Positions 1 to 38,694 of a stretch of DNA of 64,000 bases are shown piece by piece; position 1 is the stretch's first letter, and the number at the start of each line of letters is the position of its first letter. Origin of the DNA: an uncultured Alphaproteobacteria bacterium (GTDB lineage: Bacteria; Pseudomonadota; Alphaproteobacteria; Rs-D84). The notes below the pieces were generated by a model, which saw nothing but the letters and a program-made list of their open reading frames with translations, had not been told where the DNA came from and ran no database searches. The position numbers and the translations under genes are program-made. The stretch covers positions 774-64,773 of the forward strand of contig CALDAH010000016.1 in assembly GCA_937903135.1 (NCBI GenBank), written 5' to 3'.

Positions 1-414
1 TCTGATCCGTCGAATAAAGGTGAGAAAGATTTTGCATCGCTTCCGTTACAGACTCGAACGCAGATTGAAAAGGCAATTAATGATATTTCTGAATCTCTGG
101 ATTATCAGTTAATGGAAAATTGCGAAGAACTTGGCGGATATTGGCTGGATAACACTAACCAAACCCCTGGGAATTTATTAGTCGCGTTTTATTCGCAATA
201 CTATGGCGGTAATACAAATAAAACTGAAAACGGCAGATGTATTGAAAATACCACTATGGTTCAGTGTTTGAATTATAATACCGATGCCGAACAGGTCGCG
301 ACATATGACAGCGCGCGCGATGAATGTGTATTTAATGATACATGGTATAAAAACAAGTGCGAATCAATCGGCGGATATTATGATGCAGGTGTTTGCTATG
401 TGCCTAAAAAGTAA
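1..414 (+). CDS. Cysteine-rich secreted-protein family member, 3' portion (5' end outside window)
   Basis: Frame 1 is open from base 1 (SDPSNKGEKDFASLPLQ...) and continues into the listed 112..414 ORF. Motifs CEELGGYW and CESIGGYYDAGVCY. A second Cys-rich gene starts 22 nt downstream. Confidence 0.6.
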   Translation, partial: SDPSNKGEKDFASLPLQTRTQIEKAINDISESLDYQLMENCEELGGYWLDNTNQTPGNLLVAFYSQYYGGNTNKTENGRCIENTTMVQCLNYNTDAEQVATYDSARDECVFNDTWYKNKCESIGGYYDAGVCYVPKK

Positions 415-3983: not shown

Positions 3984-4012
3984 TTGTATTTATTCCCCAA
4001 ATATTATATAAT
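3984..4012 (+). promoter_or_regulatory. Sigma70-like promoter TTGTAT-17 nt-TATAAT (leader A)
   Basis: TTGTAT 3984-3989, 17-nt spacer, TATAAT 4007-4012. The same hexamers and spacing recur at 19914-19942. Confidence 0.55.
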
Positions 4013-4018
4013 CCTGGC

Positions 4019-4264
4019 GTCGGCGGGTGTTCTGCTGATGGGGTGTAACGATCCTGCATACGCATTAGAAATAATAGGCAGTGTTTTTAATACTGCCCGG
4101 TTGTTTTTCTGATGAAAACTCCTGATCCCAATGACCGGGTCAGGAGGGTTGCTTAATAACCGTATCATAGGGGAATCAGCAACACAATTCGTATGATTGT
4201 CGTTAACCTCCTGACCACCATATGTTTTGGTGGTTTTTATATACAGTTATCAGGAGGATAAATA
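4019..4264 (+). promoter_or_regulatory. Structured 5' leader A: hairpin P1 / SD mimic / anti-SD / intrinsic terminator upstream of a Cys-rich gene
   Basis: H0 4077-4097. P1 is CTCCTGATCC 4119-4128 paired with GGGTCAGGAG 4137-4146. CCTCCTGACC 4207-4216 is complementary to 4138-4147. Terminator ACCACCA/TGGTGGT+TTTTT at 4214-4238. The SD TCAGGAGG 4250-4257 is identical to 4140-4147. Confidence 0.55.
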
Positions 4265-4900
4265 ATGAAACGATATTTGCTGTTAACGTTTTCCGGGATG
4301 ATGGTTATATGCCCCCATGGATTGTTCGCGGGTGCGCGAATTGAATGCAATGGCGGTATAACATATTCAACGTGCGCGGAGTCCAACCCTGATAATCCGA
4401 CCAGTTGCAATGTAGTAAATTCGGCCGAGATGGTTATATACGACGCAGCGCAAAAATGCGCGGCAATCAGTACCGTTTGGTACAAAGGGCGCGGAATTAT
4501 GAACTGTGATCGCTGCATAGATGGCGCGGTTAAGGTCAATGTCAACTTTACCCTGGATACGGGATGCCAGGCATATTATGATTATTGTAAATGTCAGCGG
4601 ACGACGACGTGTTCGGCCGGGACGTGGTATTCGGCCGGCGCAGGATATGAACAACGAACAAATCAATACGACTTATGCGGGACATGTAAAACCAAAACGG
4701 AATACAGATGTGCCGCCGGATATTGGGGCAGCCCATCCAGTGCCACGTCCGGATGCACGGCGTGTGATAAACTTGGCGGGCATGGGACATCTGCGGCCGG
4801 GTCAACGTCGCGAACAAAATGCTATGTCCCGGCCGGTGCTGCGATAACTGATAATATCGGGACGTATAAATTTTCAAATAACTGCTATTACAGCAATTAA
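4265..4900 (+). CDS. Cysteine-rich secreted protein (211 aa), family with C-terminal GTYxF/YxxxC motif
   Basis: Signal-like MKRYLLLTFSGMMVICPHGLFAG. Strong SD AGGAGG. CxxC/GYW modules (CSAGTWYSAG, CAAGYWGSPSSATSGCTACD). C-terminus TDNIGTYKFSNNCYYSN. Confidence 0.75.
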   Translation: MKRYLLLTFSGMMVICPHGLFAGARIECNGGITYSTCAESNPDNPTSCNVVNSAEMVIYDAAQKCAAISTVWYKGRGIMNCDRCIDGAVKVNVNFTLDTGCQAYYDYCKCQRTTTCSAGTWYSAGAGYEQRTNQYDLCGTCKTKTEYRCAAGYWGSPSSATSGCTACDKLGGHGTSAAGSTSRTKCYVPAGAAITDNIGTYKFSNNCYYSN

Positions 4901-19913: not shown

Positions 19914-19942
19914 TTGTATTTATTTTCAATATAAATTATAAT
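19914..19942 (+). promoter_or_regulatory. Sigma70-like promoter TTGTAT-17 nt-TATAAT (leader B)
   Basis: TTGTAT 19914-19919, 17-nt spacer starting TTATT as in leader A, TATAAT 19937-19942. Confidence 0.55.
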
Positions 19943-19948
19943 TATCCC

Positions 19949-20220
19949 GAATCCAAAGGGATATTGGGTTCGGGGTCGTCAAAAAGCCCATAATTAAAGA
20001 CAGTGTATAAAAAACACTGTATCCGCGGTACATTCCTGGCGCGGTTGCGCCATTTATTGTACGCCCCGATCGTAACGGTCGGGGAGCTGTTGGCTATAAC
20101 ACAGGGTATGTTTTTACCCAAAGGCCATCAGGGTCATTTCTTTAATTATGATTTTTTGAACTCCCCGACCGCCAAACCGTTTGGCGGTTGTTTTATTGGT
20201 AAAAAAAAAAGGGGGAAGCG
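19949..20220 (+). promoter_or_regulatory. Structured 5' leader B, homologous to leader A
   Basis: H0 ACAGTGT/ACACTGT 20000-20020. P1 is CCCCGATCG 20064-20072 paired with CGGTCGGGG 20076-20084. CTCCCCGACCG 20161-20171 is perfectly complementary to 20076-20086. Terminator ACCGCCAAA/TTTGGCGGT+TGTTTT at 20168-20195. SD GGGGGA 20211-20216. Confidence 0.55.
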
Positions 20221-20667
20221 TTGAAACATTATTTATTATTTTCATTAACGGCGGTAATCTGTTTAATATTATCACCCGCGATTGCCGTAACGCAATGTGT
20301 GCCAAGCATGTATAACATGACAAAATGCAACATCGGAACTGGAAATAACAACAACTCATGGAGTGCATCATGTTCGGATGGCGGCTCTCTTTCTATCTTT
20401 CTGTATGGGTCGGCGAATTGTTCGTCGGATTCATCTTCCCGCGGATATGGATATAAAGATATGCTAACGATATCCAGTACGCTTACAAATAACAAATACT
20501 GCTGGTGCAAACTTGATCGGCCATACCCGACGCGCTGGTTATATCTATATGACGCCAGCACCGGGGAAATATGCGCAAAAAATTGTTCAGAGAAATGCGC
20601 AACCACCCTCCAAACCCTTCAGGGATATCGCCAAGCATTTGCGCATACGTCCGCCCTGTATCGTTAA
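20221..20667 (+). CDS. Cysteine-rich secreted protein (148 aa), TTG start
   Basis: GGGGGA SD 4 nt before TTG. Signal-like MKHYLLFSLTAVICLILSPAIA. Multiple Cys (YCWCKLD..., CAKNCSEKCA). Confidence 0.65.
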   Translation: MKHYLLFSLTAVICLILSPAIAVTQCVPSMYNMTKCNIGTGNNNNSWSASCSDGGSLSIFLYGSANCSSDSSSRGYGYKDMLTISSTLTNNKYCWCKLDRPYPTRWLYLYDASTGEICAKNCSEKCATTLQTLQGYRQAFAHTSALYR

Positions 20668-20687: not shown

Positions 20688-20978
20688 ATGAAAAAACTGT
20701 TATTATTTTTTATTGCATCTGTTTATTTACAATCGGCGTGCGCAGATCCGATGACGATATGCCCAACTAATTTTATAACAATTGAATATGACCACACTGC
20801 CAAATTCAGCGAATCCAGCGTCGGCAGCAGCTGCGGCAGCGGATACGTAACCGTTATGGCGGTCCAAAGCTGCATAGAAACCACAACCGGCCCATGTTGG
20901 ATGTACGCGCCGGGCGGAATGCCATTTAATGACACAACCGGGACATATGAATTTACAGCCATATGCCCGTTAACATAA
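20688..20978 (+). CDS. Small cysteine-containing secreted protein (96 aa) with C-terminal GTYEFxxxC motif
   Basis: GGGGGA SD before ATG 20688, inside the listed ORF 20571..20978. Signal MKKLLLFFIASVYLQSACA. C-terminus NDTTGTYEFTAICPLT. Confidence 0.65.
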   Translation: MKKLLLFFIASVYLQSACADPMTICPTNFITIEYDHTAKFSESSVGSSCGSGYVTVMAVQSCIETTTGPCWMYAPGGMPFNDTTGTYEFTAICPLT

Positions 20979-38297: not shown

Positions 38298-38312
38298 TTA
38301 TAACTTAAAAAC

Positions 38313-38341
38313 TTGCAATTTCCAGCAGGAATATTTATAAT
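38313..38341 (+). promoter_or_regulatory. Sigma70-like promoter TTGCAA-17 nt-TATAAT of the tmRNA gene
   Basis: TTGCAA 38313-38318, 17-nt spacer, TATAAT 38336-38341. Confidence 0.55.
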
Positions 38342-38384
38342 ATTTATGTCACATTAGTGATGATGATTCTGAATCCGTTGTGCA

Positions 38385-38662
38385 ATAGTCATTTTGGACC
38401 CGGGGGCGGTACCCGGCACCTCCACCAATAAAACATACGGGGGTGTACCAGATTCGACAGATGATAAAAGACAAATTGGGTGAATCCGACATGGTGTCGT
38501 TAAAAACCGACTAAAAACTGAATGGCGATAGAATCGCTGCGAACGACAATGTTCGCTTTGCAATGGCTGCCTAATACGGCATCGGATATAACTGGCAATT
38601 GTTGGTTGTATTCACTTTAAGCTATTGCGGGGTGCGCCCGAGCCCGGCAACAGAAATCGGGT
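38385..38662 (+). ncRNA. ssrA: Two-piece (circularly permuted) tmRNA: acceptor piece, then coding piece; ends approximate
   Basis: The acceptor piece ends ...GGACCCGGGGGCGGTACCCGGCACCTCCACCA at 38427. The coding piece starts GGGGGTGTACCAGATTCGACAG at 38439. Its GGGGGTG pairs with CACCTCC, giving G3-U70. Tag ORF GCG AAC GAC AAT GTT CGC TTT GCA ATG GCT GCC TAA encodes ANDNVRFAMAA (38539-38574). GCAATAG (about 38391) pairs with CTATTGC (38622-38628). Confidence 0.85.
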
Positions 38663-38694
38663 ACTTATTTAAAATATAATAAAAAGGCATAAAA

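Follow-up and report, generated by a model that had tools for sequence, protein, structure and literature searches.

What does the ~270-nucleotide (nt) leader do that precedes a two-gene, cysteine-rich operon in an uncultured Alphaproteobacteria bacterium of the lineage Rs-D84? This leader, here called leader B, occupies positions 19914-20220 of the forward strand of the window, that is, the whole 64,000-nt stretch analysed (positions 774 to 64,773 of contig CALDAH010000016.1, assembly GCA_937903135.1; all coordinates for leaders A and B and their genes are those of the window). A paralogue, leader A, lies at 3984-4264 on the same strand, and a profile search found exactly these two copies in the window. 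A sequence-only reading had proposed that both contain three successive complementary elements and an overlapping terminator, and a scripted check of every string it claimed for leader B found all of them in place. Judged from compensatory changes among related leaders, we show here that two mutually exclusive folds both exist and are conserved. Leader B is probably a cis-acting two-state transcription attenuator that alternates between these global folds, one of which contains a three-way junction related to the small RNA (sRNA) sRNA-Xcc1 (Rfam RF02221). The argument uses the following parts of the leader:

19914-19942, +: promoter TTGTAT-17-TATAAT, full string TTGTATTTATTTTCAATATAAATTATAAT, sequence confirmed
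19949-19971, +: hairpin S1, GAATCCAA / TTGGGTTC, loop AGGGATA (RNAalifold helix 1)
19971-19985, +: 5' strand of P-long; CGGGG (19971-19975) pairs with CCCCG of element 3, TCAAAAA (19979-19985) with TTTTTGA (20153-20159)
19989-20000, +: 5' strand of P0, CATAATTAAAGA, pairing with TCTTTAATTATG at 20139-20150
20000-20020, +: B-type-only hairpin ACAGTGT/ACACTGT, the 'H0' of the sequence-only reading
20037-20052, +: hairpin H0 as used here, GGCGC/GCGCC, with a T-rich run behind it; conserved in both the A-type and the B-type consensus
20064-20072 with 20076-20084, +: P1, element 1 (CCCCGATCG) with element 2 (CGGTCGGGG), 9 bp including one G-U
20076-20173, +: sRNA-Xcc1-like three-way junction, closed by the helix of elements 2 and 3 (helix 2:3)
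20087-20094 with 20124-20131, +: junction arm P4, with an inner hairpin at 20104-20119
20132-20136 with 20149-20153, +: junction arm P5, GGTCA with TGATT
20139-20150 and 20153-20159, +: 3' strands of P0 and of lower P-long
20161-20171, +: element 3, CTCCCCGACCG, the exact reverse complement of 20076-20086
20168-20195, +: terminator ACCGCCAAA/TTTGGCGGT + TGTTTT (string check)
20166-20195, +: the same terminator with extended stem, (CG)ACCGCCAAA / TTTGGCGGT(TG), then TTTT
20201-20220, +: A10 tract, G5 Shine-Dalgarno (SD)-like run (20211-20215) and spacer, before the TTG start at 20221
3984-4264, +: leader A, the A-type paralogue, with elements CTCCTGATC (4119), GGTCAGGAGG (4137) and CCTCCTGACC (4206) and a terminator at 4213-4235

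The two leaders belong to a large family. Using nhmmer, we found 125 leader copies in ~1 Mb of fetched contigs, nearly all of them from gut metagenome-assembled genomes of Candidatus Enterousia / order Rs-D84, with two in the window, and a pattern scan of GTDB species genomes yielded at least 118 loci. By their elements, the copies fall into at least three triplet types, plus many minor variants:

Type A: element 1 CUCCUGAyC, element 2 GGUCAGGAGG, element 3 CCUCCUGACC
Type B: element 1 CCCCGAyC, element 2 GGUCGGGGAG, element 3 CUCCCCGACC
Type C: element 1 CUCCAGC, element 2 GGUUGGAGG, element 3 CCUCCAACC

A third variant in locus L013 reads CTCCAGC / GGTTGGAGG / CCTCCAACC. In leader A, the motifs CTCCTGA / TCAGGAG / CTCCTGA and the SD AGGAGG were found at 4119, 4140, 4208 and 4250. 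The sequence-only reading had taken the joint change of the three elements between A and B as the mark of a paralogous leader whose structure is under selection; more than 100 copies agree, and a structure-preserving bias is still present with more copies aligned. Its equation of the hairpin at 20000-20020 with one in leader A was mistaken. This is an extra B-type hairpin without a place in the A-type alignment, and in our alignments the B counterpart of the leader A hairpin GGCAGTG/TACTGCC (4077-4097) is GGCGC/GCGCC at 20037-20052.

The first of the two folds, the terminator state, emerged as a shared architecture when RNAalifold was applied to 31 A-type leaders and, after removal of four outlier rows, to 52 of the 56 B-type leaders in the alignment. 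Its order is S1, P-long, P0, internal hairpins (H0 in both types, an extra one in B-type), P1, P4 (which corresponds to P3 in A-type leaders) and the terminator. In P-long, the 5' G-run and a UCAAAAA-like strand pair with a segment that leads up to element 3 and takes in its first half. For leader B, this fold is also the minimum free energy (MFE) structure predicted by RNAfold, and against dinucleotide shuffles the leaders fold with z = -4.8 (leader B) and -6.3 (leader A), 0 of 200 shuffles being as good. Among 56 B-type leaders, 89.7% of the cells were paired versus 78.2% in shuffles and 37-47% in slid controls, and 472 cells carried double changes versus 158 in shuffles. Covariation in the B-type alignment was strongest in P0 (90% paired, both-side changes at 5/7 pairs, 22-31 double changes per column) and in the lower part of P-long (92.8% paired, AU/CG/GC/UA exchanges at 3 columns), the upper part of P-long being 89.7% paired with fewer exchanges. 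The same alignment gave both-side changes at 5/8 pairs of S1 (89.1% paired), double changes at 4/6 pairs of the extra B-type hairpin (helix 6, 90.6% paired) and at 6/6 pairs of H0 (helix 7). A-type leaders form P-long as the same helix, and their P0 covaries too. P1 was paired in 91.5% of cells in 101 leaders, with a TA/CG exchange between types. That is, the structure that competes with the antiterminator is itself conserved, as P1, P0 and P-long all covary. The two long-range helices P0 and P-long are absent from the sequence-only reading, which likewise missed the pairing of the 5' half of element 3 with the 5' G-run. A pseudoknot between the S1 loop GGAU and AUCC at 20021-20024 (82.7% paired) is weakly supported and remains tentative.

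The terminator itself was called by a terminator scan of leader B at 20166-20190 (11 pairs, 6 GC, T tail). A canonical GC-rich stem followed by a T-run stands after the domain in 102 of 105 copies, among them 9 of the 11 that had not been pre-selected for a terminator. Hairpin H0 at 20037-20052 and its counterpart at 4077-4097 are GC-rich as well, are followed by a conserved T-rich run and look terminator-like by scan in both leaders; H0 may be a programmed pause site upstream of element 1.

The second fold is the three-way junction closed by helix 2:3. Alignments A3, A4 and A6 had been pre-filtered for at least 9/10 complementarity between elements 2 and 3 and hence are biased for this helix. 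We therefore re-measured it on 101 nhmmer hits taken without such a filter, most of whose loci stem from a search pattern that fixes GACC of element 3 and the terminator arms. In this set, 92% of the cells of helix 2:3 were paired, and the GC/AT/TA compensations included two pairs that lie outside P1. For the whole junction we used R1, a covariance model built from 47 B-type 3' domains with a structure derived from RF02221. On an alignment of 106 copies fitted to R1, the junction was 93.1% paired versus 71.6% in shuffles, with 525 double-change cells versus 132 and double changes at 23 of the 26 pairs; on the same R1-fitted basis, helix 2:3 was 96.9% paired, with double changes at 7/10 pairs. 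When the structure was transferred from a cmscan alignment to a MAFFT alignment, 88.6% of the junction was paired. Arm P5 is GGGUCA:UGAUUU in B-type and ACAAU:AUUGU in A-type leaders.

Can both folds form in the same molecule? Element 2 is common to P1 and the closing helix, and element 3 is common to the closing helix, P-long and the terminator, with ACCG being shared between helix 2:3 and the 5' arm of the terminator. The 3' strand of P0 occupies the loop of P5, the whole 12-nt loop being paired, so that by this geometry P0 and P5 should be mutually exclusive. Since elements 2 and 3 and the P5 loop are used in both, the two folds exclude each other.

Within this competition, element 1 is the weaker partner of element 2, as the sequence-only reading had noted for the two leaders: opposite the same G of element 2, a T (G-U wobble) occurs in 26 of 82 copies of element 1 versus 7 of 82 copies of element 3. 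Helix 2:3 is thus stronger than P1, as that reading had it, but the energy of the whole molecule favours the terminator state. In constrained RNAfold calculations on 90 leaders, the terminator state was the MFE in 90% of them. For the full-length leader, the antiterminator state lay 11-14 kcal/mol above it; at the decision point, with folding restricted to the RNA that precedes the 3' arm of the terminator, the difference was 4-7 kcal/mol. By these predicted energies, termination would be the default state, and read-through should therefore need an input.

We propose the following mechanism. In the off state, the 5' half of the leader would pair with its 3' half through P1, P0, lower P-long and the helix between the G-run and the first half of element 3. 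This would leave GACC of element 3 free to complete the terminator at 20166-20195, and transcription would stop ~25 nt before the ribosome-binding site of the two-gene cysteine-rich operon; P1 would act as anti-antiterminator. In the on state, element 3 would pair with element 2 and close the sRNA-Xcc1-type junction with its arms P4 and P5, whereby the terminator stem would lose 4 nt and RNA polymerase would read through. A putative effector (a small molecule, a protein or another RNA) would stabilize the junction or tie up the 5' half and so turn the genes on. Covariation support for both conformations of a switch is uncommon.

The design resembles trp-type attenuators with their 1:2, 2:3 and 3:4 pairings, as well as riboswitch and T-box leaders, in having three successive complementary segments and an intrinsic terminator, with helix 2:3 overlapping the 5' arm of the terminator and the gene following immediately. 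It differs from these classical systems in that no leader peptide was seen on inspection by eye and no Rfam aptamer or T-box matched. Moreover, the antiterminator is a whole conserved three-way junction, and the anti-antiterminator is a long-range duplex of four segments that joins the two halves of the leader. Three known modes of control were considered and rejected. Short open reading frames (ORFs) were inspected by eye, with no tool run, after the SD-like element 2 and after a conserved AUG in the A-type S1/S2, and no frame was conserved between copies or types, which speaks against leader-peptide attenuation. CsrA-type GGA sites in element 2 do not fit, as many B-type copies have GGGGGU or GGGUAU without GGA. 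A T-box was dismissed for want of an Rfam match and of specifier or UGGN features.

How does the junction relate to known RNAs? A whole-window Rfam scan at gathering thresholds gave no meaningful match to the leaders, and leaders A and B had no RF02221 match at E <= 10. In an E-value-based Rfam scan of nine sibling loci, however, RF02221 matched the 3' half of two B-type leaders with 47.7 bits (L010) and 35.5 bits (L076). The gathering score of RF02221 is 53 bits, which no family member reached. The closing helix of the RF02221 model corresponds exactly to helix 2:3 and encloses P4 and P5. In the reverse direction, R1 scored 86.8 bits on the junction of leader B (20076-20173), 30.2 bits on leader A (4137-4219) and 20-31 bits on A-type leaders, and it found type C copies too. 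It also recovered a copy from Aeromonas (L137; 43.7 bits, E = 1.8e-8) and one from a Pseudomonas plasmid (L136; 32.6 bits, E = 1.1e-5); both had first been obtained by BLAST with the RF02221 consensus and were scored here with R1. By this reciprocal similarity, the core of the leaders is a distant, enlarged relative of sRNA-Xcc1.

The likeness extends beyond the scores. RF02221 and the leaders share the same three-way junction. Its closing helix is G-rich on one strand and C-rich on the other (GGyCGGGG : CCCCGrCC) and surrounds two hairpins, one interrupted by an AUAnAAnA / GAA internal loop and one small; a U-rich joiner and a final ACC come after them. The unpaired RF02221 motifs (AUAcAAuA, GAA and the U-rich joiner) recur in the B-type consensus as TATAnAACA ... 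AAA(G/A) ... TTTTT..AAC, and in leader B as TATAACACA at 20095-20103 and AAAG at 20120-20123, while A-type leaders have a reduced AATAT..AAATA loop only. RF02221-like copies and leaders alike stand directly upstream of a gene. The leaders differ in an extra 5' domain of ~130 nt (S1, P-long, P0 and extra hairpins) with complementarity to the junction; the copies inspected from Aeromonas, Pseudomonas and phages have no such domain. They are chromosomal, present in multiple copies, mostly upstream of genes for secreted proteins, and below the Rfam threshold, whereas RF02221-like copies precede antirepressor, BRO, ORF6N and symE genes and RF02221 is annotated as a trans-acting sRNA (type 'Gene; sRNA').

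sRNA-Xcc1 is an 88-nt RNA found as a discrete species in Xanthomonas campestris (PMC2996969), its homologues in Xylella are abundant as small RNAs (PMC12189769), and in Xanthomonas integrons it lies upstream of symE (bioRxiv 10.1101/2025.06.18.660453). Later work has regarded sRNA-Xcc1 as a trans-acting sRNA of integron cassettes. RF02221 ranges over Xanthomonas integron cassettes, Xylella islands and APSE phages. We found similar copies in Stx2a-converting and Shigella phages and in Pseudomonas, Aeromonas and Neisseria records; BLAST with the Aeromonas copy returned 96 phage records, mostly of Stx2a-converting phages. Copies of the RF02221 type stand upstream of an ORF6N protein gene in APSE phages, of a BRO-family gene on the Pseudomonas plasmid and of a 'putative antirepressor' in Shigella phage Ss-VASD (L139, 890-1030), one of these 96 records. 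In the Ss-VASD copy, element 1 (CCCCGATC) is present along with the junction and an overlapping hairpin further downstream, and the three-element logic is therefore the minimal form of the family. In this phage, the annotated start of the coding sequence (953) falls inside the RNA motif, and an ATG at 1026 is preceded by the SD AAAGGAGG; the latter looks like the real start of the antirepressor. In phage and Aeromonas copies, the hairpin overlaps the closing helix, the Aeromonas copy lacking a T-run. Across classes, the hairpin that follows element 3 has kept its sequence as well as its structure (CCTCCCGGCCACCAT..ATGGTGGTC in Aeromonas L137, 1540-1580, versus CCTCCTGACCACCAT..TGGTGGTT in Enterousia, 4206-4241), which a plain terminator would not need. 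A limited literature search, whose silence is absence of evidence only, brought up no paper that describes the sRNA-Xcc1 family as a cis-acting switch. The leaders are best regarded as a new and extended form within the sRNA-Xcc1 family, a known RNA whose function is poorly understood.

It is conceivable, but on balance doubtful, that the Xcc1-type junction is the sensor domain of an unrecognized riboswitch-like class that binds a small molecule or a dedicated protein. In Rs-D84, this sensor would have gained a 5' 'anti-domain' and spread in many copies to form a genome-wide regulon. If so, this regulon would turn the secreted and surface proteome, along with some defence and glycosylation genes, on and off in concert; in Stx phages, integrons and plasmids, antirepressor, BRO and symE genes would be governed by the minimal form of the switch. 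The link to sRNA-Xcc1 offers a concrete cis mechanism, terminator versus three-way junction, and the versions in Escherichia coli phages are a possible tractable model.

Several points weigh against transcription attenuation. The terminator-state alignments were drawn from copies pre-filtered for 2:3 complementarity, and the counts for helix 2:3 and the junction carry the search pattern and the fit to R1 described above. By RNAfold energy, the antiterminator state might never form without help, and Rfam scans found no known aptamer or T-box in leaders A and B (E <= 10) or in the sibling loci. The leaders belong to uncultured organisms and are known as sequence. About 14% of the downstream genes are cytoplasmic. 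sRNA-Xcc1 itself was reportedly presented as an 88-nt trans-acting sRNA (PMC2996969; Chen et al. 2011). Following this description, the leader could be a stand-alone trans-acting sRNA of ~245 nt that ends constitutively at the terminator, the gene being reached by incidental read-through. The Rfam type of the family related to its 3' domain, the discrete species in Xanthomonas, the abundant small RNAs in Xylella and the terminator state being the predicted MFE would all suit such an RNA. We nevertheless regard it as unlikely: in nearly every copy a gene with an SD begins 20-35 nt past the terminator, which leaves no room for a promoter, a constitutive sRNA would not need a conserved second fold that disrupts its terminator, and in phages, plasmids and integrons, too, the motif immediately precedes a gene. 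The attenuator and trans-sRNA ideas are not fully exclusive, as a terminated leader could have an added role in trans.

The switch might instead act on translation, with element 3 or element 1 sequestering the SD and the 'terminator' serving as a structural hairpin only. In the centroid fold of leader A, CCUCCUG of element 3 and the SD CAGGAGG do pair, enclosing the terminator hairpin, and the overlapping hairpin of the Aeromonas relative lacks a T-run. The sequence-only reading had let the SD change together with the three elements. A correlation of SD type with leader type is there (Fisher p = 0.01), yet the trend is weak: GGAG occurs in 22 of 27 A-type leaders, whereas B-type leaders have GGGG (20), GGAG (19) or other sequences (24), the B-type leader of L010, for instance, carrying AGGAG. 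Complementarity between element 3 and the SD (4.42 versus a mean of 3.90) exceeded all 200 permutations. Common descent suffices for this trend, because leader and gene are inherited together; many B-type SDs are unable to pair with element 3, and the canonical stem and T-run in 102/105 copies argue for termination. As the sole mechanism, control of translation thus seems rather improbable, and we see in SD sequestration a lesser rival or an additional layer. The A/B likeness might also lack any RNA function and stem from a recent duplication that drifts neutrally, or from a repeat acting as DNA, such as a mobile element or a site of recombination for surface-antigen variation. This would suit an element that is present in many copies, lies upstream of genes for variable surface proteins and interrupts short-read assemblies at its 5' end. 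The covariation already contradicts this reading, and it is very improbable: strongly diverged copies keep their pairing by double changes in ~10 helices, an orthologous locus keeps the leader although its protein is only 46% identical, the leader is always sense to the downstream gene, and no inverted terminal repeats or transposase were seen.

As promoter in front of the leader, the sequence-only reading had named TTGTAT-17-TATAAT; the string is there, but a strict consensus scan did not call it, because its -35 matches at only 3/6 positions. Within the window, the 11-nt string TTGTATTTATT occurs at 3984 and 19914 only. TTGnnn-16..18-TAnnnT occupies the equivalent position in at least 45 of the 88 family members (10.2 expected from shuffles), and a version with perfect TATAAT in 22 of 88 relatives (0.35 in shuffles). 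We accept the leader B promoter because of this conservation across the family, and transcription would start at about 19948-19950. In four samples (L001-L004), the Logan contigs all stop exactly 271 nt upstream of the first gene of the operon, at the first base of S1 (~19950). Such a common end point would be expected if further B-type leaders of this genome had at least 31 nt of a 5' segment in common with leader B; the longest run common to this segment and the leaders fetched from other genomes is 26 nt (L066, L127).

What do the leaders control? The genes downstream in the window are:

20221-20667, +: gene B1, 148 amino acids (aa), TTG start, signal peptide, 10 Cys
20688-20978, +: gene B2, 96 aa, signal peptide, Cys-rich, with the C-terminal motif D..GTY.F...C as in gene A
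4265-4900, +: gene A, 211 aa, Cys-rich, secreted

TTG at 20221 is the sole start that gives B1 its signal peptide, and public assemblies call the same 148-aa product. No Pfam or NCBIfam family matched the three proteins; gene A and B2 share the C-terminal motif Y.P.G....D..GTY.F...C (BLASTP E = 4e-4). Between terminator and TTG start, the A10 tract is directly joined to the G5 run (20201-20215 together), and these homopolymers in the ribosome-binding region could allow slipped-strand on/off variation. Across the family, the gap between terminator and start has a median of 28 nt, typically 20-35 nt, and is followed by a gene with an SD; no separate promoter fits because the gap is so short. A simple heuristic assigns a signal-peptide-like N-terminus to 88 of the 102 complete ORFs downstream, and 60 of the 102 contain at least 5% Cys. 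Most downstream proteins have no Pfam family. Those that have one include Ephrin_rec_like Cys-rich repeats, Chlam_PMP autotransporters, BspA-LRR, OMP beta-barrel and peritrophin-A; the Ephrin_rec_like repeats and the chitin-binding peritrophin-A domain, present in a few of these proteins, are eukaryote-like adhesion modules. The cytoplasmic minority includes GT2, Stealth, XRE HTH, restriction-modification and UvrD-like helicase proteins, and because of this ~14% share 'secretome regulon' would be an inexact name.

Among the matches listed, nearly all are labelled Candidatus Enterousia, uncultured Alphaproteobacteria or Rickettsiales, and they come from human, ruminant, horse and termite guts. 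Enterousia (order Rs-D84) have genomes below ~1 Mb and appear to depend on partner cells (PMC12306168). The many copies would form one regulon, mainly of exported and surface proteins, in reduced-genome, partner-dependent gut bacteria. If true, one RNA switch in front of a large part of the exported, Cys-rich and autotransporter proteins would be the main visible handle of Rs-D84 on its interaction with hosts or partners, and one of the rare regulons run by RNA in a minimal genome. In other metagenome-assembled genomes, homologues of protein A have the same leader upstream, gene A lies on GCA_948762305.1, and the syntenic locus of another species is the one that keeps the leader with a protein of 46% identity.

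Multi-copy modules of promoter and 5' untranslated region in front of signal-peptide or lipoprotein genes are also known from the small genomes of Mycoplasma (vsp, vlp, vpma). Those modules act at the DNA level, by site-specific inversion or homopolymer slippage, and are near-identical, whereas the leaders are diverged and have kept their RNA pairing. At locus L010 (860-2500), one A-type leader and two B-type leaders lie within 3.6 kb; two of the three are divergent, and each is upstream of a gene for a Cys-rich secreted protein; leaders therefore cluster locally. None of the 200 supplementary files searched from the human-microbiome RNA catalogue of Fremin and Bhatt (2021) contained a match to the leaders. 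Leaders also occur on contigs binned as Bacteroides fragilis, Muribaculaceae and Bacteroidaceae (L055, L089, L032), the first two of which hold them at full length; mis-binning of Rs-D84 contigs is the probable cause. Elsewhere in the window, a tmRNA gene at 38309-38665 is of the two-piece (permuted) alphaproteobacterial kind and scores 155.7 bits against RF01849.

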